Below are positions 24,664 to 38,002 of a stretch of 64,000 bases of DNA, piece by piece. The position numbers and the translations under genes were made by a program. The stretch is from a virus. The stretch lies in the IMG/VR virus record IMGVR_UViG_3300034095_000254. The stretch is one strand, 5' to 3'. The notes below the pieces were generated by a model. That model had not been told where the DNA came from, made no database searches, and saw only the letters and a program-made list of their open reading frames with translations. How positions within the stretch are numbered: the first letter of the stretch is position 1; every line of letters starts with the position of its first letter.

Positions 24664-25023
24664 TTAAGGTTTTAAAACCCAGTTTACAGTTTCTTCGTTC
24701 CACAAATACACTTTAGTATCAGTCGCATCGCTTGGCATAGGAATTGGTGGTTCCCATAAACAAGTGTCTTCGTTTAATACCCAAGAAGAATATAATTTAG
24801 GTGGAATAAAAGCATCTCTTTCATCGTCGTAGCTATACCCCTTACCTGCATAATTTTTTCTTAATGCAGTTCCACCTAATTTGTGTACACCACCCTGTGT
24901 ATTAATACTTGTTTGAATCCAGCGACCTGGAGAATTATCAATATAACTATCAATCCATTCTTGGTCTGCTGAAACTACATTCGTTACTATATTATTTTCG
25001 TTTACTTTTGCGTAATGTCCCAT
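24664..25023 (-). CDS. Partner protein of Gly-rich adhesin (copy 2)
   Basis: MGHYAKV...WIQTS...LRKNYAG.G..YD..RDAFIPPK...W.LNEDTCLWEPP; paralog of 26011-26424. Start chosen after the GGAG RBS. Confidence 0.7.
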   Translation of the reverse strand: MGHYAKVNENNIVTNVVSADQEWIDSYIDNSPGRWIQTSINTQGGVHKLGGTALRKNYAGKGYSYDDERDAFIPPKLYSSWVLNEDTCLWEPPIPMPSDATDTKVYLWNEETVNWVLKP

Positions 25024-25034
25024 ATTATTCTCCA

Positions 25035-25973
25035 TTAAGCAGCAAGATATTTGATAATAACACAACCAGTGCTACCTGCAGCACTTGGATTACCTGCGCC
25101 ACCTCCACTACCTCTAAATGATGCCCCTGCTTGGCCAGCAACAGGGCTAGTGTATGGACCACCACCATTACCACCAACACCAGAGCCACCAGTTCCGTTT
25201 ACACCTGGAGATCCAGTAGCAGTACCACCTGCACCACCGCCAGCATAGAACAGTGGACTTCCAGAAATAGAGTATGCTAATCCTGCACCGCCATTACCAC
25301 CACCACTTGGTGTTCCAGCTTGCCCAGCAGCACCTGCTCCTCCGCCACCACCGCCAGATTCTGGTGAAAGATCAAATCCGTTACCACCTGCGTTACCTTG
25401 TCCTGGAGTTCCTGCGCCACCTGATTGTGTTTGGTCACCACCGCCACCGCCACCAGAGCCACCAGCGTTTCCATTCTGGACATAACCACCCCCACGACCA
25501 CCACCAACTGCAGTGTATCCATTAAAAGTTGTATTATTACCAGAGGCATTTGCAGCACCACCACCTCCAACCACAATTCCATATGATGCAGTTCCAAGTG
25601 TCATAGATGATGAATAAATTAATCCACCTGCTCCTCCACCACCACCCCAAGCATTATTTGGTCCACCTTGTGCACCGCCACCACCACCGCCAGCTACCAT
25701 TAATACTTCACATCCTTTTGTACCAGACAGAACTTGGAAAGTTCCATTATCAGTAAATGTATGAATATTATATGAACCAGAAGTTGTAATTGTACCACCA
25801 GTAGCAACGAACGCACCGATACCAATCCATGTAGAGACTGAGGTATCATAGTATTCAATATAACCAGTTGAACTGTTGGCACGAAGCATTCCAGCAGTTG
25901 GGGTTCCAGGTCGTTGTGCTGTGGTTCCAACTGGAAGTGTTAGTGCGTGTTCACCTAAAATTGTACTTGGCAT
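25035..25973 (-). CDS. Glycine-rich domain protein (putative fibre-tip adhesin), copy 2
   Basis: PVGTTAQRP...GMLR.N; HTF..GTF; EVLMVAGGGGG; polyglycine runs; ends G.VIIKY. Confidence 0.75.
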   Translation of the reverse strand: MPSTILGEHALTLPVGTTAQRPGTPTAGMLRANSSTGYIEYYDTSVSTWIGIGAFVATGGTITTSGSYNIHTFTDNGTFQVLSGTKGCEVLMVAGGGGGGAQGGPNNAWGGGGGAGGLIYSSSMTLGTASYGIVVGGGGAANASGNNTTFNGYTAVGGGRGGGYVQNGNAGGSGGGGGGDQTQSGGAGTPGQGNAGGNGFDLSPESGGGGGGAGAAGQAGTPSGGGNGGAGLAYSISGSPLFYAGGGAGGTATGSPGVNGTGGSGVGGNGGGPYTSPVAGQAGASFRGSGGGAGNPSAAGSTGCVIIKYLAA

Positions 25974-26010
25974 TTGTTATCCTCTAAAATCTTTATTATT
26001 TATTAATGTT

Positions 26011-26424
26011 CTATAATGCTTTATTTTTTTCATCCCAGCTGGTAGTTTCTTCATTCCAAACATAGAAATATCTATGAGTGGTATCAAACCATCCTTCTGG
26101 ACATGCAATTGGTGGTTCCCAGAGACATGTGTCTTCATTGAGAATCCAAGACGCATATGGTTTTGGTGGAATAAAAGCATCTCGCACAAAATCATATGTA
26201 AAACCAATACCTGCGTAATTCTTTCTTAGTGCTTTTGTTTGATCTTCAGATGGAATCTGTCCACCTTCAGGTAATTGAGTATAATGTATACCACCCCTTG
26301 TATTATAAGATGTTTGAATCATCCATCCTGGAGTATCATCAATAAATGTGTCAATAAATTCTTGGTCTGCCACAAGAACTTTGTCTACAATACCATGTTC
26401 GTTTACTTTTGCAAAGTGTGCCAT
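26011..26424 (-). CDS. Partner protein of Gly-rich adhesin (copy 1)
   Basis: MAHFAKV...LRKNYAGIGFTYD..RDAFIPPKPYASWILNEDTCLWEPP. Confidence 0.7.
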   Translation of the reverse strand: MAHFAKVNEHGIVDKVLVADQEFIDTFIDDTPGWMIQTSYNTRGGIHYTQLPEGGQIPSEDQTKALRKNYAGIGFTYDFVRDAFIPPKPYASWILNEDTCLWEPPIACPEGWFDTTHRYFYVWNEETTSWDEKNKAL

Positions 26425-26435
26425 ATTAGTTTCCG

Positions 26436-27419
26436 TTAAGTTGCAGCCACATATTTAATAATGACAATACCAGAACCACCACCAGAAGAATTACCTCCAC
26501 CACCGCCACCACCAGTATTTGCAATTCCAGAAACAGATGGTGCACTAGTATTGGTGTATCCAGCAGTACCCTTACCGCCACCGCCAGTACCGCCACCACC
26601 TCCAGATGTTGGAGATTGATTAGTACCGCCACCACCTCCACCGCCACCTCCGTAGTAAGTTGAAGTACCTGATATAGAATACGCTAGACCAACTCCACCA
26701 GCACCACCACCACTTGGTGTTCCACCTTGCCCAGCTGCACCTGCGCCACCGCCACCGCCAGCAGATTCTGGTGCTGGATTTAAACCATCACCTCCTGAAT
26801 TACCTTGTCCTGGAGTACCAGATCCACCAGCACCTTGTGGCATAGCATAGTCGCCACCACCGCCACCACCAGAACCGCCTGATCTACCTACTGATGCAGC
26901 AACACCTTGTCCACCACCGCCACCGCCAACTGCAGTGTATCCATTGAATGTAGTGGCAGTACCATCGCTACCACTACCACTACCCACACCAGTTGCGCCA
27001 CCACCAACACTCACTGTGTATGTGCCAGTTGAAATTGTCATGGATGATGAATAGAGCACTCCACCTGCACCACCACCGCCAGCCCAAGCACCAGTGTTTG
27101 GATATGGATTACTACCCCACATTCCGCCACCACCACCGCCAGCTACCATTAATACTTCACATCCTTTAGATCCAGAAAGAACTTGGAAACTGCCTGTGGT
27201 TAAAAATGTATGAGTAGTAAATCCTCCGCTTGTTACAACGGATCCGCCTATTGCCGTAAATGCTCCAATACCTAACCAGCTTGAAGATCCAGTATCATAA
27301 TATTCAATATAACCAGTAGTAGAATTTACTCTGATCATTCCAGCAGTGCCAGTTGGTCGCTGAGCAGTAGTTCCGACTGGGAAAGTTAATGCGTGTTCAC
27401 CTAAAATTGTACTTGCCAT
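26436..27419 (-). CDS. Glycine-rich domain protein (putative fibre-tip adhesin), copy 1
   Basis: Paralog of 25035-25973; translationally coupled to the upstream S74 fibre. Confidence 0.75.
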   Translation of the reverse strand: MASTILGEHALTFPVGTTAQRPTGTAGMIRVNSTTGYIEYYDTGSSSWLGIGAFTAIGGSVVTSGGFTTHTFLTTGSFQVLSGSKGCEVLMVAGGGGGGMWGSNPYPNTGAWAGGGGAGGVLYSSSMTISTGTYTVSVGGGATGVGSGSGSDGTATTFNGYTAVGGGGGGQGVAASVGRSGGSGGGGGGDYAMPQGAGGSGTPGQGNSGGDGLNPAPESAGGGGGAGAAGQGGTPSGGGAGGVGLAYSISGTSTYYGGGGGGGGGTNQSPTSGGGGGTGGGGKGTAGYTNTSAPSVSGIANTGGGGGGGNSSGGGSGIVIIKYVAAT

Positions 27420-28318
27420 TATTTACTCTCCAACATTTTTACTTTATCATTTAATTCTTTGATTGCTTCGATTAAAAGAGGAACCAATTTTTCATATTGC
27501 ACTGTTTGATAGTTCTCACCAGAACGAGAGATTTCTGTATTTTCAAACAGCATAATATCAAATGGAGCAGGTTTAACTGCTTCTGGGAGAACTACCTTCA
27601 CATCACCTGCAAGAACACCTACTTGTTTTTCTTTACTAGAATATCCAAATGACTCTGCTAATTGATTTGCATTAAAAGTGACTCCACGAAGAGTCATAAT
27701 TTTATCTAGCGCATTTGGAATAATTTCGATATTCTCTTTTAATCTTTCATCTGAATACCACGAAACAATATCATTAGTGGCACGAATAGATCCAGCAGTT
27801 CCAGAAGCTGCAGTTCCAATACCCAGTGAACCAAATTGTGGATTTGAGGAAGTTGCTAAGTCTTGTGGACCATTAAGAGTAATAACCCCAGAGGTATTAG
27901 TTACTGTAATTCTGTTTGCAGTGCCAGTCAGTGTAGTACTAGTATAAGCACCAGCTGAAGTACCAACCAGTAAACTACCACTAGTAGGTGCAGTAGTAAT
28001 ACCAGTTCCACCAGAAGCGACAGGTAAAGTTCCAGTGGTTAAAGCAGAAGTGCTCGTAGCATAAACTGCTCCACCATTAGTAAAACTCGTTAGCCCAGTA
28101 CCACCTTTAGTCGTGGCAATAGTTGTGGCACTCCAAGTACCAGTCGTAACTGTTCCTAAAGTAACAAGATTAGAGTTACCTGTAAAAGATGCTTCTAATT
28201 TATCAGTGTTTAGATTGATAAAGTTAGTATCAATTTCAGCATTTGTTAGAGGGAGATCTTTCCTAGTGACACCACCTGTGCCAGTAGTTCCCGTTTCTCT
28301 AGTTGTAATCGAAGCCAT
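27419..28318 (-). CDS. Short tail fibre with peptidase S74-like chaperone
   Basis: N-terminal PLTNAEIDTNFINLN; C-terminal YSDERLKENI...YEKLVPLLIEAIKEL. Confidence 0.8.
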   Translation of the reverse strand: MASITTRETGTTGTGGVTRKDLPLTNAEIDTNFINLNTDKLEASFTGNSNLVTLGTVTTGTWSATTIATTKGGTGLTSFTNGGAVYATSTSALTTGTLPVASGGTGITTAPTSGSLLVGTSAGAYTSTTLTGTANRITVTNTSGVITLNGPQDLATSSNPQFGSLGIGTAASGTAGSIRATNDIVSWYSDERLKENIEIIPNALDKIMTLRGVTFNANQLAESFGYSSKEKQVGVLAGDVKVVLPEAVKPAPFDIMLFENTEISRSGENYQTVQYEKLVPLLIEAIKELNDKVKMLESK

Positions 28319-28353: not shown

Positions 28354-29070
28354 TTATTTAGGAGTATTACAATACTGTTCGTAAGTTTGCATATATTCTC
28401 CACTATACTTATTTATAGATGCCTCTAAAATACCTCTAGTTTGAGATTTCCTAGAATCGACATAAAAACGAACCATAATCATGGGTTCATCGCTATAATT
28501 AAAAGCATTATGATAATGATAGCTGTTTAAACAGTATACTTTTCCAGACTCATACGACTCTTCAAATACCTTAATCGGTTTGGTATAGTCTGACCCCCTA
28601 TAATCCATGTAGGTTATAAGACTAAATTTAGATCCTTTAGGCATTACGATTGGAAGATTCCAAACGGATATCCACTCAGGTTGTCCTGCTTCTTTAGCAT
28701 GGCTATGCCACCCTGCAGATCCACCCTTAGAAAACACTTCAATCCTAGCCAATAACTCTCCACCACCAACAGACTGCAAAACGCTATCCAAATACGGACA
28801 TAATTTTATGGCATCTGTTTTAACAAAATTACCATCCCAAGATTCAGCTGGATTAGACTTAACATTACCATCGATACTATACAATGCTATGGAATCCCAT
28901 TTATTCAATTCATCAAGTTCCATAGTTTTATCAAAGGATAATGAACTTCGATATCCTTCTAACTTGTAGGGTAGGTTTTCTATTTCCTGCAGAATTAGAT
29001 TATGGTCAAATTCAATACCTAAAGGTAGGTGTGCGATTTCATTTAACTTATCCAATGTACTCTCCATCAT
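28354..29070 (-). CDS. Asp/Asn beta-hydroxylase-like Fe(II)/2OG-type (cupin-fold) oxygenase
   Basis: W..IALYS, T...KLCPY, ARI....GG..GWHSH and LNSYHYHNAFN...R pattern. Start uncertain (ATG 29070 or 29067, or TTG near 29055). Confidence 0.7.
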   Translation of the reverse strand: MMESTLDKLNEIAHLPLGIEFDHNLILQEIENLPYKLEGYRSSLSFDKTMELDELNKWDSIALYSIDGNVKSNPAESWDGNFVKTDAIKLCPYLDSVLQSVGGGELLARIEVFSKGGSAGWHSHAKEAGQPEWISVWNLPIVMPKGSKFSLITYMDYRGSDYTKPIKVFEESYESGKVYCLNSYHYHNAFNYSDEPMIMVRFYVDSRKSQTRGILEASINKYSGEYMQTYEQYCNTPK

Positions 29071-29761
29071 AAGCATTGACCGCATCTTGAACCAAATCAT
29101 AAACTAACTCATCTCTAAGATCTGCAAAGAAACGAATAGTCAATCGAACCCCATCCTCATCAAAATTAAACACATTGTGATAATGGTAAGCATTAAAGAC
29201 AACTGGAGTTCCAGGGATATAGGTAGACTCATATACCTTTGGGTTATTAATCCCAAAATCCATACCTCTATACTCTTCATTTGCAATCACAGAATATTTA
29301 AACTTATTCGGCATAGTTATAGGTAACTGAATAATCATCATCGTGTCAGGATGTGATAACTCAAATACATGGTTATGCCACCCCATCACAGTTCCTGGAT
29401 GAATCTCTTCAATCCTTGCCAATGCTTTACCACCACCCAGTTTTTCAACTATGTCATAGGTGTATGGGAGATATTCAGACAAACCAGTTTTTTGGAAGTG
29501 TCCCCAGATTCTTTCTAACTCACCTGGACCAGCACCCTCTAAACGATCGCAGAAAATCTCACCATTGTAACTAAACAAAGATAGATTGTTCCACTTACTT
29601 TTCTCGTGGCCATGATTCTCCTGCATTGTTGCAGCATAAGGCATCAATGGAAATGGACACTCACCGATTTCTTGTTCAATCCGTGCAGCATCATAAGTAA
29701 AATTCAACGGTAGATGAGGAATTCTATTTACTTGTTCAACTAACTTTTCTATATTTCTCAT
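29048..29761 (-). CDS. Asp/Asn beta-hydroxylase-like Fe(II)/2OG-type oxygenase
   Basis: WNNLSLFS, ARIEEIHPGTVMGWHNH, QLPITMP and FNAYHYHNVFN...RL; paralog of the downstream ORF. Confidence 0.7.
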   Translation of the reverse strand: MRNIEKLVEQVNRIPHLPLNFTYDAARIEQEIGECPFPLMPYAATMQENHGHEKSKWNNLSLFSYNGEIFCDRLEGAGPGELERIWGHFQKTGLSEYLPYTYDIVEKLGGGKALARIEEIHPGTVMGWHNHVFELSHPDTMMIIQLPITMPNKFKYSVIANEEYRGMDFGINNPKVYESTYIPGTPVVFNAYHYHNVFNFDEDGVRLTIRFFADLRDELVYDLVQDAVNAYDGEYIG

Positions 29762-31640
29762 TAATAAAGTTTTCGTAATATGTTCTTATCTGGTAGGTTT
29801 TATCGTACTTTGGAGAGATCGAATCTCTATATTTATCCAGTGAATCTTTAAACTGTTTAATAATATCATCTGGAACATCAAGTCCCAAGTCTTCACTAAC
29901 AGAACATAAAAACTCAATGTATTCTTGTTCAAATACATAAACGCAAGATTTGTATATGTAGGAAAAATCCACAGATATACCAGTGAAGGGTAAGTTAAAT
30001 TGTTTGTAATCTACAACTTCATTTCTATTGCCATCCATTAGATACTGCATCTGGTCGTTTAAGTTTTTCATTGCCAAAACATAATCGTTGGTAGATGGAG
30101 AAACTATCTTCTCATAAATCTTTCTAAAGATTAGCGAAGGTGTTTTTAACTTACCATTTTCCATATTATGTTTTACAATTAAGTCTGTAAATCCTATCAT
30201 GGAAACATTTTCAAGAATCCAATAATTCATGAAGAAAAATTCAGTAAAGTCTTTTCTTGTAAACCCATTTGCTTCTACCACAAACTCTACATCAGAAATA
30301 AAATTTGGATCAGCAGATATATGGTAATCACCAAAGGTATTGACATCATCGAATGCATAACTATTCATTCTTGATTTACCAATACAGATTTTTTCTGTTT
30401 TGATATTATGTTGTTTAATATAGCTGGGAGAGTAAGCAGGAGAGTCTGGTAAAAATAACCAAAGATATCTCTCTAAATTGTAACCATACTCATACTGAAT
30501 ATCAACCTCAGCATAAAAGTCGTCTCTGGTATATCCAGGTAATCCCATCATAAACTCAAAGTCAGAACGAATACCATATGTATCAAAAAGATACTGAGCA
30601 AACTCAAAATCTTTCTCACGAGGAATATCGGTTCGTTTGATATTCTTGAGGACTTCGTTATTTAAAGTTTGCAAACTAAGTTTGTATCGTTCAACTACTT
30701 TGGCTCTAGCAAGTGGCTCGATAGTTGCCCATCGTCTTTCTTGTTTAGACTTAGTCATACCATATATTTCTACATGGTTTGGTAAACCTGAGTATCCTTT
30801 AATTGTTTCAATATATTTGGAAACATCCTCATCTTCCAGATATATTCCGTAGTTTGCATCAAGGATTTGAATCTGCTCAATACCAATCTGTGGTATCCAA
30901 TCTAAATCTTCTTTGATCATATCCAAAGGTTTACGGATAACCTTACCACCGATCCCACCACCCCACTCGCAGAACACACATTGGTATGGGCAACCACGAG
31001 TCAACTCAATTGGCATAACCAGTGGGACATTTCTTTCCATGGCAATATTTTTACATTCAAACAGAATGTCTTCATTACCAGAAATTAAACTTGAGGGGAA
31101 GTCGAAGTCAATTTTATTTCTAGTTTTACCACGACCAGTTTTATAAACTGCAAAAGAAACTTCTTTCCAATTAATATCACCTTCTACAGATTGGTCAAGA
31201 ATGTCAGTAATAAACCACTCTCCATAACTTGTTGGTTCGCAGATAGCGTCTACAAATTTATGTTTAATAAACCAATCAAGATTATTGTAGGTGATATTAA
31301 GATGTGGTCCACCAAGTAGAATAATACGATTTGGATTTCGTTTCTTCAATTCTTTAGCCACAGCCATAATAGCCATATGACTCCAAAGATAACTGGAGAA
31401 TGCATAAATCTCTGAGTCTTGTTTATCGTAGTAATCTACAATTTGTTCAAATGACCACCCTTCTAAATTAAGGATTGGTTTTTCCCAAATAACTCTATCT
31501 GGATATTTACCATGTTTCGTGTAGTAGTTCTTAAAGTTCAACCAATTGATTGGCAACCTTTGAATTGGAACACGAAGGTCAATATTAAGAAACGAGATTC
31601 TTATGGATTTTTTGAGTTGCTTCAACATAATCTGTTTCAC
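29736..31640 (-). CDS. Cobalamin-binding-type radical SAM enzyme
   Basis: N-terminal AFSSYLWS...IILLGGPH (B12-binding-domain-like), ELTRGCPYQCVFCEWG (CxxxCxxC), DANYG and MMGLPG. Start uncertain. Confidence 0.85.
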   Translation of the reverse strand: MKQIMLKQLKKSIRISFLNIDLRVPIQRLPINWLNFKNYYTKHGKYPDRVIWEKPILNLEGWSFEQIVDYYDKQDSEIYAFSSYLWSHMAIMAVAKELKKRNPNRIILLGGPHLNITYNNLDWFIKHKFVDAICEPTSYGEWFITDILDQSVEGDINWKEVSFAVYKTGRGKTRNKIDFDFPSSLISGNEDILFECKNIAMERNVPLVMPIELTRGCPYQCVFCEWGGGIGGKVIRKPLDMIKEDLDWIPQIGIEQIQILDANYGIYLEDEDVSKYIETIKGYSGLPNHVEIYGMTKSKQERRWATIEPLARAKVVERYKLSLQTLNNEVLKNIKRTDIPREKDFEFAQYLFDTYGIRSDFEFMMGLPGYTRDDFYAEVDIQYEYGYNLERYLWLFLPDSPAYSPSYIKQHNIKTEKICIGKSRMNSYAFDDVNTFGDYHISADPNFISDVEFVVEANGFTRKDFTEFFFMNYWILENVSMIGFTDLIVKHNMENGKLKTPSLIFRKIYEKIVSPSTNDYVLAMKNLNDQMQYLMDGNRNEVVDYKQFNLPFTGISVDFSYIYKSCVYVFEQEYIEFLCSVSEDLGLDVPDDIIKQFKDSLDKYRDSISPKYDKTYQIRTYYENFINEKYRKVS

Positions 31641-32631
31641 TGTTTATTTTAATAATTCTTGGAGCCAACTGTTTCATATGAACACAGTGCTCTTCAACCA
31701 TATCATGGTGTTTTAAATCTTTAATTGTTTTCTTACACCCATTACAAATTGCAAACATTGGGCAACCAATACATTCATCCTTTAACGAATACAACTCTGG
31801 AGCATTTTGTAGTGGTGTAATAAAGCCACCTTCTTTAACTTCCTTTACAAAGTTAATAGGGTATTCTTTATCATCACCCATCGCTCCACAAGAATAGTAA
31901 TCACCCTCTGGATTTAACGCTCTGATATGATCATCGCAGTTTCTTGCCTGAGGACAAACATTGGCAATATTGTTCAGACGAGTCATCATCTGTTTAGTAT
32001 TAAATTCCCAATGCCAAAGATCTTTCTCGTATACTTCAATATACATCTCATATATTTTACTTAGGCGATATGGTTTGTCCTGTTCACCTGAAGCCATAGC
32101 ATAATTCAATTTACATTGAACATCCATTTTCTTGGCTAACTCTACATGTTTAATTGCATGCTTCTCATTCTCTTCAGAGATAACTGCAATAAAACCTGGA
32201 CGATAACCAATTTCTTTTAGGAATAAATCACTGACATTCCAAAAGTCTTTTTCAGTATAGACTCGGTTCTCGTTAATCTTACGACCAAATCCATATTGAA
32301 AACTTGTGGTGACTCCGACTCTTGGATGTTTGAACAAAGGTGTCCACATCTCTGGTTTCTTATAGAATGCCCAGAGATTAGTAGTTAACCCTATTGTTGT
32401 TTGGAGATTGTGTTCCTCAATATACTCCAGAATTGCAAAATAGTATTCTGGTTTTACCATCAATGGATCGCCACCATTGACGATAATTGTGTTTGTATTT
32501 GGGAATCTTTTTAGAAAGTCAAAAACATGCTGAAGGTTAAGTGTACTTGCTTTGTCTTCTACGAGTTTAGTCGATGAACAAAACGAACACTTAAAGTTAC
32601 ACAGTTCCGTGGGTTTGATTATAAGTTCCAT
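31585..32631 (-). CDS. Radical SAM / SPASM domain enzyme
   Basis: IKPTELCNFKCSFC and NGGDPL; C-terminal C...C...NPEGDYYSC...CIGCPMFAICNGC...C cysteine array. Confidence 0.9.
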   Translation of the reverse strand: MELIIKPTELCNFKCSFCSSTKLVEDKASTLNLQHVFDFLKRFPNTNTIIVNGGDPLMVKPEYYFAILEYIEEHNLQTTIGLTTNLWAFYKKPEMWTPLFKHPRVGVTTSFQYGFGRKINENRVYTEKDFWNVSDLFLKEIGYRPGFIAVISEENEKHAIKHVELAKKMDVQCKLNYAMASGEQDKPYRLSKIYEMYIEVYEKDLWHWEFNTKQMMTRLNNIANVCPQARNCDDHIRALNPEGDYYSCGAMGDDKEYPINFVKEVKEGGFITPLQNAPELYSLKDECIGCPMFAICNGCKKTIKDLKHHDMVEEHCVHMKQLAPRIIKINSETDYVEATQKIHKNLVS

Positions 32632-33583
32632 TTTTCACTTTATACTTATTAAGCCATGCTGTATTATTTTGGTTCTTTAGAATCGTGTTCCAGAAAATGG
32701 GATTAACGGAATCAAAGTTAGAGTAGTTCGGGAATAATAATTGAAATTGTATAGCAATCTCAGGATTTAGTAAACGAGTTCTAATAAACTCAGTCTTAGT
32801 CATGGTTAAAACAGGATCTAGAATATCTTGATATTCTTCACTATTATTAACTATTGTAAAAAAGTGTTTATGATAATCAAATCCAAATTTATCTTTAACT
32901 ATTGGTACAACAGTATTTGGTAGAAACTCATCAACTTTAAACTGATTAAGATATTGCTCTAGATAAGCATCACTAGTCAAATGTTCTATGGTAAACTCTG
33001 AATCAGACATAATAGCTGGAAGAGATTGTTCAGCATACTTTACCCAAAAGCCTGGAGAGCCATCGTACATTTCGTTTACACGATCCGTACAAAAATCTAA
33101 TGCTTCTTCGTCACCTCTAACTGAGTTTGCAAAAGCAATTTCAACTCTGGTATATGTTAGCGTAGATGAAAATGTAGATGCAGTATCAGTAGTCTTTAAA
33201 GTTTTTGGTAATTCAACAAACTCAACATCTCTATTTGTGAATGTTCCAATTCTGTAATTTTCTTTTATTCTATCAAATGAATATAACTCTTTAACTGCAG
33301 TAGTTTCTAAAACACCATTAAAGAAGTATGAGTAAACATACATAAAATTATTGGTATCACAATAAATTACAGTTTTTGTATTCGAGTGATCTTGATGAAT
33401 CTCATTAAATAGTTCGTCAAGTTTAGTATCATCGATCGTTTCATATGAATGTAAAATATCATATGTAAGATGAACCATGGAATCGCTGGATAGTTTTGGG
33501 TGTGAACCTATCCAAACTTGTTTGCTCTTTTCAAGAATACTATTTGTAGTTGATAGGTAACAGTTGTCGAATAGGTATATCAT
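32597..33583 (-). CDS. Hypothetical protein of the rSAM cluster (paralog A)
   Basis: 328-aa ORF overlapping both neighbours; MIYLFDNCYL and KTVIYCD. Confidence 0.7.
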   Translation of the reverse strand: MIYLFDNCYLSTTNSILEKSKQVWIGSHPKLSSDSMVHLTYDILHSYETIDDTKLDELFNEIHQDHSNTKTVIYCDTNNFMYVYSYFFNGVLETTAVKELYSFDRIKENYRIGTFTNRDVEFVELPKTLKTTDTASTFSSTLTYTRVEIAFANSVRGDEEALDFCTDRVNEMYDGSPGFWVKYAEQSLPAIMSDSEFTIEHLTSDAYLEQYLNQFKVDEFLPNTVVPIVKDKFGFDYHKHFFTIVNNSEEYQDILDPVLTMTKTEFIRTRLLNPEIAIQFQLLFPNYSNFDSVNPIFWNTILKNQNNTAWLNKYKVKNGTYNQTHGTV

Positions 33584-34461
33584 GCTATTAAACCCAAATT
33601 TGTAATTTTTGATTGTGGTAATTTAAGTAGCCATCTAAGCAACCAAGTGTCTACTTTATCACTGGATAGTAGTAATAAAAATTTTGGATCATTTATTAAT
33701 TCTTCAGTAACACCATTTTCAAAGAACTGCACAATTAAAGAATCTGTAAATATTGATCTATCTTTTCTCATTTCCATGTATAAATCTTTCATGGAAATAA
33801 CTGTTCTAAATTCTTGGTTAAATGGATCTGTTGCCCAACCATCTTCTTTTCTAGATAGGTAACATTGTCTTGCATCACCAAAAAATGAATATACATAACG
33901 ATTAATAAGTGATGTTAAAATACCATCATAGTTATTCGGAACACCACATTTTCTGTTGGCTATCTTCCATTCAATTCCTGCATTTTCCCAACTCCAATAC
34001 TCAGACATTGGAAATTTACCAACAGAAGCTGATGAGGTTAAAGCAATAAACTTATCGCCAAGATCGCTAATAATTTGTTTGTTAGTAGAATCAATTAGTT
34101 TTGATTTTATCTTTAAACGAACACCAAACAGTTTTGCAAATTCAAGAAACAAAGATTCGTCAAAATTAAAAATATGAGATTTAATTTTTGCAGTAAAAAA
34201 CTTGACTAGTGTTTCATCGTCACAGTAGATTATAAACTTCTCTTTATTACTGCAGACTGGTTCGACTAGATTACTTTTAATGAAATCTTCATAGGTAGCG
34301 AATCTCCCGAAGCACTGCTTAACTGATACATTATTATAGTAAAAACTATTTTCGACTTGAGTACCTAGAATAGCATGTTTCTGCCCAACCACGATATAAT
34401 CAATAGAAGGATCAAACATTGCGTCTGGGTAGACATAACAGGAATTATAGAGATGTAACAT
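33580..34461 (-). CDS. Hypothetical protein of the rSAM cluster (paralog B)
   Basis: 293-aa ORF; MLHLYNSCYV and KFIIYCD. Confidence 0.7.
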   Translation of the reverse strand: MLHLYNSCYVYPDAMFDPSIDYIVVGQKHAILGTQVENSFYYNNVSVKQCFGRFATYEDFIKSNLVEPVCSNKEKFIIYCDDETLVKFFTAKIKSHIFNFDESLFLEFAKLFGVRLKIKSKLIDSTNKQIISDLGDKFIALTSSASVGKFPMSEYWSWENAGIEWKIANRKCGVPNNYDGILTSLINRYVYSFFGDARQCYLSRKEDGWATDPFNQEFRTVISMKDLYMEMRKDRSIFTDSLIVQFFENGVTEELINDPKFLLLLSSDKVDTWLLRWLLKLPQSKITNLGLIA

Positions 34462-35206
34462 TTGTCTCTTCGTAGATAGATTGAAATTGTTCAGTAGTCA
34501 ATGGTGTTTCTAACATAATTCTTAACAGCGGAAAAATAAAACAATTCGGGGATGTTATAAAGTTAATTAGAGTTTTACCTGAGTAAATCGGTCTATCAAA
34601 ATAGTGATCGAAATACTTTATGTTATCAAAAGATGGAACAGAACTGTAATAGTGGCAGTTGAATGTTATATTATCAAATAAATTTACAAATGTTTTTCCG
34701 ATGTCTTGTTTTTCAGTAACAACATTATTTGTAACAAAGTCACCGAGTTCTTCTTTGTATGCAGTTAGGTTTTTAATTGCATATAATAAAACACCATCTA
34801 ATATTTCAGACAACTGTTTAATTAAATCTGTGTTCTGTTCTACGAATTGTTTCACTTCATCGTTAGATAAAATACATTGTTCTAAAACTGCTTTATCATC
34901 TTCTGATTTATCAACTAAGGATAAATCATAATCTCGAAAATAAAACAAACATTTAATTACAGTTGCTTCTAATTGATTAATATGACAAGATGAGTTATGT
35001 TTAATAAACTCAGAAAGCAGTTCAGATTTTTCTTCAAAAGAAACCATAGACATATTAATATTTAAAGACTCATACTTTAAATTACTCAAATATGTAATAA
35101 AGTTTTTACCTTTAATTTTTGAATTATTATAGTCAATCTCAGGAGATTTAATATCTCCTGTTATAATACTTCTTAAAGTTTCAGAATCAAATGGTATAGT
35201 GTACAT
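34445..35206 (-). CDS. Hypothetical protein of the rSAM cluster
   Basis: Probable start MYTIPFD at 35206, overlapping the stop of the 171-aa gene (TAATG). Confidence 0.65.
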   Translation of the reverse strand: MYTIPFDSETLRSIITGDIKSPEIDYNNSKIKGKNFITYLSNLKYESLNINMSMVSFEEKSELLSEFIKHNSSCHINQLEATVIKCLFYFRDYDLSLVDKSEDDKAVLEQCILSNDEVKQFVEQNTDLIKQLSEILDGVLLYAIKNLTAYKEELGDFVTNNVVTEKQDIGKTFVNLFDNITFNCHYYSSVPSFDNIKYFDHYFDRPIYSGKTLINFITSPNCFIFPLLRIMLETPLTTEQFQSIYEETNVTSL

Positions 35207-35721
35207 TAAATACTTCCGTGGCAAGACCCATGACAATTACTATGGCAGTAAAATTCTTCAATTGTAACAGTATCTGTTCTATTATTATTAATTGCAGTTG
35301 ATAGAGCACTAACAAAATCATCTAAATCAGAAGCATCAATAATATTATCAGAAGCTGGTCCACCAGTCATATCTTTTTTATAACTATCTTGTAAATTAGT
35401 AATGTTTGTTTCGTTGTAATCTGTTCTTGCTCTAACATTACCTTGAATCTGATAATATTTTAATAATTTAACACTTCTAATTCTAGATAATAATACAGCA
35501 TATGCTCTAAAGTTTGTTGTAATGGTAGAAGCAGTAATATTGGTATCTGATATATCCGCTTCTAATGTTTGAGAATAACCACTAGCATTACCACCAGTAA
35601 TATCTGTTTGAAATGGTTGACTGTGAGTTCCCCACACAATACCAGTATTATATGTGCTCGACAACGCTGCCATTGAAGCAACGATGTTTGCTTTTGTTAT
35701 ACTATCGCCAGCTGTTGTCAT
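35206..35721 (-). CDS. 171-aa protein with C-terminal (CHxx)3 tail; candidate substrate of the rSAM/SPASM enzymes
   Basis: Thr/Ser/Asn-rich body like the virion proteins; ends EEFYCHSNCHGSCHGSI; all three Cys residues are in this tail. Confidence 0.75.
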   Translation of the reverse strand: MTTAGDSITKANIVASMAALSSTYNTGIVWGTHSQPFQTDITGGNASGYSQTLEADISDTNITASTITTNFRAYAVLLSRIRSVKLLKYYQIQGNVRARTDYNETNITNLQDSYKKDMTGGPASDNIIDASDLDDFVSALSTAINNNRTDTVTIEEFYCHSNCHGSCHGSI

Positions 35722-36781
35722 TCTTTAACCTTTGCATTAGTGTTTTCGGTGCTGCACAGATATCTCCTTGCCACTTTAATTGGTGACAATCGCTATTACA
35801 GATATCAAATACATCGCATGTATAGCAACGAGGGTCTCTTTCTATCTCGCATGTAATGTTATTTATTCTTCCTCTGGCGGAGAGTAGAGTTCTAATGGGC
35901 TGAGATATATCTCCAAAGCCATTACCAACTGCAGCATTTGGACATCCAGCCACAGTTCCATCGGCATTGATTGTGAAAATTTTCTGCTCACAATCTCTGC
36001 ATCTAACTCCACCATGTATCCCTTTAGTTATAGAGGAATACACACCCTCTAAGAGGACATCTTTATATTTAGGTTTTATTGTCTGATAGGTTTCATGCAT
36101 TCTAACGAACCAGTCATCTTGATCTTTATTTCTAGGAAAAATATGAGTGTTTTCCAGAGCCGAACCATCATGGGTTAGTCGTTCAAACTGTACCCAATTA
36201 ACACCCAGAGTATTGAGCCAGAGAACTAACTCTGTGGTATCCATTTCTAAGAGTTGTTTGTTTAGACTAATATTCAGTGTGATATTAAATCCAGCATCTA
36301 CTACAGTTTGTAGATTCTTTCGCCAGAGTTTTTCTTGTTTATCATTCTCAAAACGAATACCCTTATCCCATGAAGTGCAGAATCCATTCTTTAGAACAGT
36401 TCTGAAAAACTCCATGTGGTCTTCTGTTAGATTGAAGCAGAGATTAGTAGAACACGACCAGTTAAGATTTGGGAATAACTTAGATACTTTATCCCAAACA
36501 TAGTACATGTCATCTAGAGGAGCAAGGAATGGTTCTCCTCCATGAAATGTAATGTTCCCACCATTAAAAGTTGGGCATTCCTCGTGGAGTCGTTCAAACC
36601 ACTCTACAGTATTCTGGGGATTAAAGTATATCTTCTTGCCGTTGACACCATTAGTAAAACAGTGTTGGCAATTTAATTGGCAAGTCTCAGTGGTCTTAAG
36701 ATAGACCACTAAGTCTTTTGGGATTAGTATATCTGAAAGAGATACATTTGTCTTATGAAAGACGATTGGTTGAGATGTCAT
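35702..36781 (-). CDS. Radical SAM / SPASM domain enzyme
   Basis: YLKTTETCQLNCQHC and FHGGEPFL; C-terminal CRDC...INADGTVAGCP...CYTCDVFDICNSDC...C. Confidence 0.9.
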   Translation of the reverse strand: MTSQPIVFHKTNVSLSDILIPKDLVVYLKTTETCQLNCQHCFTNGVNGKKIYFNPQNTVEWFERLHEECPTFNGGNITFHGGEPFLAPLDDMYYVWDKVSKLFPNLNWSCSTNLCFNLTEDHMEFFRTVLKNGFCTSWDKGIRFENDKQEKLWRKNLQTVVDAGFNITLNISLNKQLLEMDTTELVLWLNTLGVNWVQFERLTHDGSALENTHIFPRNKDQDDWFVRMHETYQTIKPKYKDVLLEGVYSSITKGIHGGVRCRDCEQKIFTINADGTVAGCPNAAVGNGFGDISQPIRTLLSARGRINNITCEIERDPRCYTCDVFDICNSDCHQLKWQGDICAAPKTLMQRLKNDNSWR

Positions 36782-36787
36782 AAAGCA

Positions 36788-38002
36788 TTATAAAATCACA
36801 CATTCAACAAGTTTTACATTAGGATCTAAATTAGTTTCAAGAGCAATGGCAAAACTATTTGGATGATCTCCAGCAATGGCACGACCATCTTGATTTGCAA
36901 CAAGAGGTTGTCCTTTGTTGATCGGACCAGCAACTTTAACTGGAACACGACCACGAAGTGCCAATGCCTGTCCTTCTGCTTCATCATTCATAATAAATGC
37001 AGGTTTGGCAGAAACAACACCAAGAACTCTTTGAGCATATTTAAAAGAAGCAGTACCTTCTGCAGAAGAGTCTAACGATACTGTAATAACAGTTCCTGTT
37101 TCATATTCTTGATCAGTTGTATATTTTTCTGCCAAGTCAGCGTAGCGAGCAGAAGTGCTCGTACCGTAAATAACAGCGAATCTATTCGCAGATTGTCCAA
37201 TGTCACCAGATCCGTTAGCACCTTGTTTAACAATGTAATCTACAGTTGGAGTTGAAGACATGTTAATAGTTGGGTTTCCAGAAACTCCATCTCCATTACT
37301 AATAGACATATTAAATCCAGCTGCAATACTTCTTGTTAGTGCTGTACCTGCAGAATCTTTAACAAAGAAGCCATGAGTAGTTACTGCAGCGAGTGCTGTT
37401 AGATTATTAGAGAATGGTTGAATGTCAGAACCAATAACTAAACCTAAGTTTGTTCTTGCTTGTGTTGTCGATGTAGCTGCAGTACCACCAGAGGCAATTG
37501 CCAATGCAGTCGTTAGAGTTACAGATCCGCCAGTAATAGTAACATTATTTGCAGCTTGCGTAGCCATAGTTCCTAAACCGAGCGCAGTTCTAGCTGCAGA
37601 CTCAGTTGTAGCACCAGTACCACCATTATTAATTGCCACAACACCACTAACATTGGTTGCATTACCAGTAACAGTTCCAGTTAGGTTACCAGTAACATTA
37701 CCAGTAACAGCACCAACTAAATTGGCAGTAATAATATTTGCCGAAAAATTACCAGAAGATCTAATGACAACAGAATTTCCACTAGTATCATTGACACTAG
37801 TATTCAAACCATCCAGTAAGTCTGCATCTAAACCAGAACCTGTCCCATCAACTGTTTTAATTTTTGTAAGAACATCTGAAGCAGTATATGTAGCTGTTGC
37901 TAGTTTTGTTCCAACCTCAGTGTTCAAGTTATCAAAGTTAGCGTCTGCCTCTGCAATCGTTAGCGGACTGCCTTTTACACTGCGAAGTACGATTGTTGCC
38001 AT
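36788..38002 (-). CDS. Tail fibre with C-terminal autocleaving chaperone (peptidase G2/IMC-like)
   Basis: N-terminal KGSPLTIAEADANFDNLN; GNVTGNLTG repeats; C-terminal ARYADLAEKY...GVVS.KPAF.MN...ALRGRVPVKV. Confidence 0.78.
   Translation of the reverse strand: MATIVLRSVKGSPLTIAEADANFDNLNTEVGTKLATATYTASDVLTKIKTVDGTGSGLDADLLDGLNTSVNDTSGNSVVIRSSGNFSANIITANLVGAVTGNVTGNLTGTVTGNATNVSGVVAINNGGTGATTESAARTALGLGTMATQAANNVTITGGSVTLTTALAIASGGTAATSTTQARTNLGLVIGSDIQPFSNNLTALAAVTTHGFFVKDSAGTALTRSIAAGFNMSISNGDGVSGNPTINMSSTPTVDYIVKQGANGSGDIGQSANRFAVIYGTSTSARYADLAEKYTTDQEYETGTVITVSLDSSAEGTASFKYAQRVLGVVSAKPAFIMNDEAEGQALALRGRVPVKVAGPINKGQPLVANQDGRAIAGDHPNSFAIALETNLDPNVKLVECVIL

Follow-up and report, generated by a model that had tools for sequence, protein, structure and literature searches.

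Radical S-adenosylmethionine (SAM) enzymes with a SPASM domain install cross-links in small secreted peptides and in a few bacterial proteins (HxsA, QhpC, and sulfatases). For the triceptide synthases HaaB, HtkB, and YhhB, the formation of three-residue rings in which His C2 is joined to a C-beta is established (PMC11499958). In the HXS antiphage system, the folded protein HxsA, which carries HxS repeats, is matured by two radical SAM enzymes, HxsB and HxsC, with HxsD; a site-specific mass change was found on the sequence S-H-R-S-S, of which the His and the last Ser are essential (PMC13128918). Here, we describe a gene cassette in a 64,000-nucleotide stretch of viral DNA (IMG/VR record IMGVR_UViG_3300034095_000254; the whole stretch is termed the window herein) that encodes a 171-amino-acid protein ending in a Cys-His repeat, next to radical SAM/SPASM enzymes. 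We consider it probable that this is a fiber-associated virion protein whose tail is cross-linked by the co-encoded radical SAM enzymes, because the tail is conserved, its motif is portable, its gene is linked to those of the enzymes, and the class of the enzymes, one virion proteome, and a published precedent point in this direction as well.

The gene for the Cys-His-tailed protein lies on the minus strand (35206 to 35721) and is defined by its open reading frame (ORF) and translation, an AlphaFold2 (AF2) model, and homologues. Its start (35721) overlaps the last 20 nucleotides (nt) of the ORF for a 359-residue radical SAM/SPASM enzyme (35702 to 36781; enzyme 1), and its stop codon is located at 35208 to 35206. 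The C terminus of the translated protein is YCHSNCHGSCHGSI, and the 171-residue translation of 35206 to 35721 (minus strand) closes with ...TVTIEEFYCHSNCHGSCHGSI. The tail core, CHSN-CHGS-CHGS-I (C159 to I171, encoded on the minus strand by 35247 to 35209), is the presumed modification site and was delimited by a unique pattern match and by its conservation in homologues. The only cysteines of the protein are C159, C163, and C167, spaced by four residues; a His follows each of them, and an Asn or Ser closes each unit. The initial annotation, made from the letters of the window, had placed all cysteines in a period-4 C-terminal repeat and had noted the overlap with the first SPASM enzyme gene, and both statements are borne out by the ORF and its translation. 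At the DNA level, the TGY-CAY codon pattern with a period of 12 nt occurs once in the window and in 0 of 100 shuffles. AF2 predicts a folded alpha/beta domain (residues 10 to 158; mean pLDDT of 76.5, which is moderate) followed by an unstructured tail of low confidence, suggesting a folded alpha/beta carrier domain with a flexible C-terminal (C-H-x-S/N)x3 repeat. The protein matched no Pfam or NCBIfam family at an E value of ≤0.01, so no peptidoglycan-binding domain was detected, and fold searches of the carrier domain against the PDB gave no significant match (Foldseek best E value, 0.49; VIA best Z, 4.2). In a viral structure library, the carrier domain matched only members of its own family, including gp170 of phage Atu_ph07.

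A word-indexed search returned 282 homologues of the 171-residue protein, and in all 120 listed of them (67 to 99% identity) the protein ends in EEFYCHSNCHGSCHGS[I/L], with rare conservative changes. Their DNA occurs in 19 distinct versions with synonymous variation at every Cys, His, and Ser codon, while the residues themselves are fixed. A profile search of 1.84 billion representatives (E value of ≤0.001) extended the family to 302 clusters at 50% identity, most of which aligned over their full length and nearly all of which carry the terminal (C-H-x-S/N)x3 repeat. Three C-H-x-[S/N] units stand at the end of 127 of 149 representatives (50% identity or less); within the units of these 127, the His is invariant, position 4 is Ser (∼78%) or Asn (∼20%), and position 3 is free. 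The Cys is near-invariant in the tails of the 149 representatives, most of which contain no other Cys. In an alignment of 35 proteins with a mean column identity of 16%, the tail is the only invariant part. The initial annotation had named lack of conservation in homologues as a point that would speak against a modified core; the tail is kept in the 120 listed homologues and in the 127 representatives alike. After the repeat, the family usually ends in R-G-R-R or R-x-R-R, and the window's subfamily ends in Ile or Leu. The window represents a marine subfamily that lacks the R-x-R-R end and has few enzymes, namely two of the SPASM type and one of the B12 type.

The tail varies in ways that bear on its role. 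The number of units per tail ranges from 2 to ∼13, with four- and five-unit members among them. About 20 representative clusters end in C-H-x-x-C-H-x-x-H-S-S-R-x-R-R, where the third Cys is lost and the third His-Ser-Ser is kept, and the suggestion of the initial annotation that the repeat can be read as His-Xaa-Ser gains from these variants. One subfamily with the ending W-C-H-x-x-C-H-x-x-H-S-S-R-x-R-R (P0150, P0151, P0161, P0163 to P0167, and others) has two Cys and three His, a natural variant that could reveal which residues get modified. Single loci show how far the repeat can be extended: L183:7959-8660 (minus strand) has ∼13 C-H-x-S units with NVPV spacers, L228:1675-2229 (minus strand) has five units, and L065 has six internal units followed by ∼190 more residues. 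The same tail is also found on a second, unrelated carrier, as 50 of 57 small tailed proteins were not found by a hidden Markov model of the large family's domain. In this second class, tandem pairs of tailed proteins of 125 to 145 amino acids directly follow giant fiber genes (up to ∼2,000 amino acids), and radical SAM enzymes lie kilobases away on the same contig (L086, L094, L097, L099, L100, L192, L193, and others in IMG/VR). The tail thus behaves as a portable module that is variable in repeat number. Two carriers and a variable number of units are consistent with an enzyme recognition motif but hardly with a fixed metal site. A role of the protein in Fe-S binding or electron transfer was rejected, given the varying repeat number and a motif unlike a ferredoxin or Rieske site.

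Linkage of the tail to the enzymes was analyzed with two degenerate-codon scans of IMG/VR, which gave at least 232 loci. Of these, 143 have an ORF of at least 90 amino acids that ends in the tail (tail loci), and the other 89, which are low-complexity or out-of-frame matches, served as controls. Counts of homologues at these loci, here and below, are among the matches listed. With the window's SPASM enzymes as queries (phmmer E value of ≤1e-5), a radical SAM/SPASM homologue was present in 113 of the 143 tail loci versus 5 of the 89 control loci, mostly directly adjacent to the tail gene and on the same strand. The initial annotation had proposed such a search for the C-terminal motif, scored by radical SAM adjacency, and this adjacency is strong and statistically clear. 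In phages, enzyme 1 homologues stand directly before the tail-protein gene, and the usual order is fiber, enzyme 1, tailed protein, and a 253-amino-acid partner, with a second SPASM enzyme (enzyme 2) at a distance of 2.5 to 6 kb. At loci of the second class, an enzyme 1 homologue (E value of ∼1e-140) was found elsewhere on the contig in four of five phage records that have no enzyme nearby. Both carrier types therefore travel with the same enzymes.

The cassette extends beyond phages. When one genome per prokaryotic species was scanned with a stricter pattern, 27 hits were obtained, ∼16 of them in Bdellovibrionota, and nearly all of the 26 loci from the bacterial collection have the enzymes and the partner protein nearby. 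In at least three bacterial genomes, several ABC-transporter genes share a contig with the cassette, which is therefore chromosomal in those bacteria. At L234, L238, L241, L247, and L251, the tail, the radical SAM enzymes, and the partner occur in chromosomes of Bdellovibrionota, which are predatory bacteria, and at L238 a gene for a fiber with an S74 chaperone adjoins the cassette. In published work on Bdellovibrio fiber adhesins, the term radical SAM occurs 0 times (PMC10769870).

When cultured phages were searched at the DNA level and by tblastn, neither the cassette nor the tail protein gave a match; the link came only via the enzyme, which led to cultured jumbo phages that carry the pairing of a radical SAM enzyme with a tailed protein. 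In Ralstonia phage RSL2, the gene after the radical SAM gene (ORF068) ends in VCHSSCHTSCHGSRGRR, and the corresponding gene of Agrobacterium phage Atu_ph07 ends in FCHSSCHASCHNSRSRR. Literature searches for the cassette turned up only gene lists in jumbo-phage genome papers (radical SAM, cupin, and 2-oxoglutarate [2OG]-oxygenase genes). Virion mass spectrometry of Atu_ph07 detected gp170 (31.89 kDa) with 8 unique peptides and 35% coverage (Table S5 in PMC6102473), and the listed mass is that of the translated Atu_ph07 tailed protein, which is 24% identical to the window protein. A homologue of the tail protein is thus a virion component. The same virion list includes the fiber gp176 and lacks the radical SAM enzymes, gp169 (the partner), and gp172 (the cupin) (PMC6102473). 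Protein gp170 was present in gel bands 1 to 9 and was most abundant in band 1, the top slice; for comparison, other virion proteins of 29 to 32 kDa peak in bands 7 to 8, and proteins of >115 kDa peak in bands 1 to 2 (PMC6102473). The peak in band 1 despite a mass of 31.9 kDa indicates that gp170 runs mainly as a high-mass species.

The position of gp170 at the top of the gel is also what disulfide-linked oligomers would give, and since the loading buffer lists no reductant, disulfides via the tail Cys alone could explain the high-mass form. This brings in the view that the tail is unmodified and is a disulfide or metal-binding end (Zn, Fe, Cu, or Ni, perhaps held jointly by the subunits of an oligomer), much like the His-metal sites of phage fiber needles, with the radical SAM enzymes acting elsewhere, on the fiber, a different protein of the cassette, or a small molecule. 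With three Cys and three His within 12 residues, the tail is a plausible chelator, and the lack of other Cys in most members agrees with such a role. Nevertheless, we regard this view as improbable: tails of 2 to ∼13 units, with one Cys dropped in some variants, are ill-suited to a defined metal site, the Ser/Asn at position 4, a poor ligand, is nonetheless conserved, and the enzyme gene is directly coupled to the tail gene in most loci, the pair moving together across unrelated phage lineages and into bacteria.

[quoted passage not shown] The protein might on these grounds be a RiPP precursor with a very large leader, from which a modified tail of 13 to 16 residues is cleaved and set free as a small peptide that acts as a metallophore, toxin, or signal. 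This appears highly improbable, however, as no recognizable protease or exporter is encoded in the cassette (Pfam, NCBIfam, and PHROG), the carrier is conserved over its full length in ∼300 clusters, the genes lie in late structural operons next to fibers, and gp170 is found in virions with the peptide coverage given above. The initial annotation had proposed a folded or virion-anchoring leader; the folded part agrees with the AF2 model and the presence of a homologue in the virion is proven, and it is the label of leader that fits less well, because full-length homology across ∼300 clusters makes the N-terminal part better described as a conserved functional domain.

Enzyme 1 (35702 to 36781, minus strand) was assigned from Pfam and NCBIfam matches and from invariant Cys in an alignment; it has a CxxxCxxC motif at residues 34 to 41, eight conserved C-terminal Cys, Pfam matches to Radical_SAM and Fer4_12, and a SPASM-domain match. 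Enzyme 2 (348 amino acids; 31585 to 32631, minus strand) was likewise assigned from Pfam and NCBIfam, its best match being a full-length one to DynA (1.7e-14). Both have the radical SAM motif and a full set of SPASM Cys, and as their identity is no more than 23% over 88 residues, they are distinct enzymes and not a duplication. The best NCBIfam matches of the two are DarE, DarW, and DynA, with near full-length alignments; for DynA and DarE, the E values are 1e-8 to 1e-14, and the scores are 26 to 54 bits against cut-offs of 450 to 650. When 35 enzyme 1 relatives were compared with the models, DynA and YhhB matched all 35, anSME and PapB 34 each, FxsB 30, HxsB 29, and the CXXX-repeat maturase 24, and the best E values were 4.6e-18 for anSME, 2.8e-15 for PapB, 2.6e-13 for YhhB, 2.9e-11 for HxsB, and 4.8e-9 for the CXXX-repeat model. 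The DynA and YhhB models represent enzymes that link His or aromatic residues to a C-beta. Since thioether, anSME, and cyclophane models match about equally, and all far below their cut-offs, homology does not fix the chemistry; the similarity indicates a peptide- or protein-modifying SPASM enzyme and nothing finer. Sequence comparison gave no close relative of known structure for either SPASM enzyme. A predicted complex of enzyme 1 with tail residues 136 to 171, three 4Fe-4S clusters, and SAM gave an ipSAE of 0.02, which, with no control complexes alongside, counts neither way on binding.

These matches leave room for a main chemistry that is Cys-based, either a thioether to a C-alpha or C-beta (sacti-, ranthi-, or NxxC-like) or a formylglycine as made by anSME, with His and Ser serving only for recognition. 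This alternative concerns the type of bond only, and the tail would still be a radical SAM substrate. Cys at every fourth residue is the pattern of CXXX-repeat cores and also of thuricin-type cores, the Cys is near-invariant, and the enzyme 1 family includes the anSME, PapB, and CXXX-repeat matches listed above. Still, we consider a purely Cys-based chemistry rather unlikely, because the ∼20 clusters without the third Cys keep His-Ser-Ser and the His is at least as invariant as the Cys. Sactisynthases usually have an N-terminal recognition domain, for which enzyme 1, with its radical SAM motif starting at residue 34, has no room, and the sulfatase motif C-x-P/A-x-R is absent from the window tail. 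A His-to-Ser/Asn link as one reaction is favored by the invariance of the His, by the Ser/Asn that follows two residues later, and by the variants without one Cys, and the near-invariant Cys together with a second, unrelated SPASM enzyme leaves room for a thioether or other reaction at the Cys. A His-to-Ser/Asn cyclophane and a Cys thioether both fit.

In the cross-linking model that we favor, the 171-residue protein would be a late, virion-borne protein associated with the tail-fiber module. Its repeat would be the substrate of the adjoining, translationally coupled upstream enzyme 1 and probably also of the second SPASM enzyme and the B12 radical SAM enzyme. Modification would take place in the infected cell before assembly, with H-atom abstraction leading to intramolecular cross-links inside each four-residue unit. 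The preferred bond would run from the His ring to the C-beta of the Ser/Asn two residues on, giving a cyclophane of three residues like those of triceptides, dynobactin, and the HXS effector. The Cys may be thioether-linked by the second enzyme or remain available to form disulfides or bind metal. The protein, which would sit alongside the short fiber and act in host contact, would thereby gain a rigid knob that resists proteases. The suggestion of the initial annotation that the core is a metal-chelating, receptor-binding tip, for example one that mimics a metallophore, is speculative. Several points weigh against this model. The modified peptide has not been observed for any family member, and the virion evidence comes from one distant homologue (24% identity) in one semiquantitative data set, for which the Atu_ph07 loading buffer as described lists no reductant. 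The Cys is conserved almost as strictly as the His, which a pure His-Ser link does not explain. The enzyme scores lie far below the curated cut-offs, the thioether formers (PapB and CXXX-repeat) and anSME fitting about as well as the cyclophane formers, and gene neighborhood alone is no proof of an enzyme-substrate pair.

The window consists of a long series of late structural genes from a T4-like myovirus, whose sheath shares 55% identity with its counterpart in Pelagibacter phage HTVC008M. Read along the minus strand, the series begins with a 2,216-amino-acid structural protein, a 404-amino-acid fiber, enzyme 1, and the tailed protein, and it continues with proteins of 253, 293, and 328 amino acids, enzyme 2, the B12 enzyme, two possible oxygenases, and a second short fiber. 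The 404-residue short tail fiber (36788 to 38002, minus strand), directly upstream of enzyme 1, was identified by PHROG tail-fiber matches; residues 261 to 400 (the C-terminal 140 amino acids) are matched upstream of the cassette in ∼85 loci of other phages, and an Atlas lead points to Peptidase_G2. Two jumbo phages (L002:7502-7990 and L001:7418-8002) have a small cupin/JmjC-like protein directly before enzyme 1, where the window has the fiber. The partner of unknown fold (253 amino acids; 34445 to 35206, minus strand) was recognized by its PHROG match (phrog_20767). Its gene most likely starts with the ATG at 35206, in a TAATG stop/start overlap with the tail gene, and not with the TTG at 35236. 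A partner homologue is found in 87 of the 143 tail loci, mostly directly downstream of the tail gene. Its AF2 model is of high confidence (pLDDT of 87.7) and has no fold match: the best Z of the fold search was 3.4, weak partial matches to radical SAM barrels among the results were not trusted, and an Atlas look-up of the protein gave no usable match.

Two cassette proteins of unknown family follow, one of 293 amino acids (33580 to 34461, minus strand; homologues in 16 tail loci), which is found mainly in the window's subfamily, and one of 328 amino acids (32597 to 33583, minus strand; homologues in 11 tail loci). Neither has a Pfam, NCBIfam, or PHROG match, and the idea that the two are paralogues was rejected (BLASTP E value of 0.68). 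An enzyme 2 homologue lies 2.5 to 6 kb downstream in 55 tail loci. The 634-amino-acid B12-binding radical SAM enzyme (29736 to 31640, minus strand) has Pfam matches to B12-binding and Radical_SAM and homologues in 16 tail loci; its match to the NCBIfam KedN5 family (3.9e-35, below the cut-off) suggests that it is likely of the C-methyltransferase type. Two overlapping ORFs of 237 and 248 amino acids (28354 to 29761, minus strand) are possible oxygenases, weakly assigned to the cassette; the 237-residue ORF has a subthreshold match to 2OG-FeII_Oxy_5 (E value of 0.045), and homologues of the pair occur in 3 tail loci. These two weak candidates at the far end of the cassette (28354 to 29761) are the window's oxygenase-like ORFs. 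Beyond them (24664 to 28318, minus strand) lie a second short fiber (299 amino acids, with an S74 chaperone) and a pair of adhesin-like, glycine-rich proteins (PF21722), each accompanied by a small partner ORF, which places the radical SAM cassette between two alternative fiber modules.

The finding is more general than is visible from the window alone. The cassette is widespread, with at least 302 clusters at 50% identity in marine T4-like phages, soil and plant-pathogen jumbo phages, and chromosomes of Bdellovibrionota, and it costs a phage 5 to 14 kb of its genome. We regard it as a real but tentative possibility that phages of several unrelated lineages and predatory Bdellovibrio-like bacteria staple the Cys-His repeat end of a host-contact protein with dedicated radical SAM enzymes. 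If so, it would be the first case of a virion protein cross-linked by a radical SAM enzyme; a literature search found no paper describing radical SAM/SPASM cross-linking of such a protein. It would also define a new class of protein-sized, RiPP-like products, with a stapled tip that may bind metal or react covalently and that would take part in attachment to the envelope of the prey cell. With a modified tail, virion maturation would depend on the host's supply of Fe-S clusters, SAM and, here, cobalamin, and the host-contact proteins of phages and predators would share a chemical feature that has gone unrecognized.

Among the described systems, sacti- and ranthipeptides and the CXXX-repeat system (PapB, CteB/SCIFF, and TIGR04115) share with the window the regularly spaced Cys (C159, C163, and C167, period 4) and a SPASM enzyme; the conserved His and Ser/Asn of the window tail, in contrast, are not features of those cores. 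For the window enzyme, PapB scores 17.1 bits against a cut-off of 340 and RumMC 19.5 bits against 720; the TIGR04115 CXXX-repeat maturase gives weak matches below the cut-off in relatives and is absent from the window enzyme's listed matches. With its CxxxCxxC motif starting at residue 34, enzyme 1 has no room for an 80-residue N-terminal recognition domain. The anSME model (TIGR03942) scores 21.4 bits against 349, and its target motif C/S-x-P/A-x-R is absent from the tail, where position +2 is not Pro/Ala and position +4 is not Arg. DynA and DarE have the same architecture as the window enzymes, with no N-terminal recognition domain and near full-length alignment, and DynA links a His N to a C-beta two residues on; their products, dynobactin and darobactin, differ in that a Trp-rich heptapeptide or decapeptide stands in place of a 171-residue Cys-His-repeat protein. 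A protein-sized substrate is likewise found in the QhpD/QhpC system, with QhpC.

Triceptides resemble the window locus in having a repeated aromatic-X-X motif (here, three His-x-Ser/Asn) and a SPASM enzyme gene that overlaps the substrate gene. Unlike the window protein, their precursors are short peptides with leaders, and the conserved Cys has no counterpart there; the YhhB model scores 18.7 bits against 445, and the window enzyme stays below the cut-offs of the characterized cyclophane synthases (YhhB, FxsB, and AmcB). The HXS system shares with the window a folded protein, tandem His-x-Ser units, and two co-encoded radical SAM enzymes with a small partner, and the H-S-N, H-G-S, and H-G-S of the window tail match its tandem His-Xaa-Ser feature. 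It differs in that each window unit starts with a conserved Cys, the repeat stands at the extreme C terminus, no peptidoglycan-binding domain was detected in the carrier, and the setting is a phage fiber module and not a bacterial defense island. The HxsC model (TIGR03977) reaches 33.6 bits against a cut-off of 267.9 and covers only the N-terminal 84 residues of enzyme 2, HxsB (TIGR03978) gives weak matches below its curated cut-off, and HxsD (TIGR03976) has no NCBIfam match at an E value of ≤0.01 among the 263-, 293-, and 328-residue neighbors. By the defining enzyme models, the cassette is therefore not classed with the HXS, triceptide, sacti-/ranthipeptide, CXXX-repeat, or anSME systems. 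By analogy, it would work most like HXS and the triceptides, with HXS as the closest precedent.

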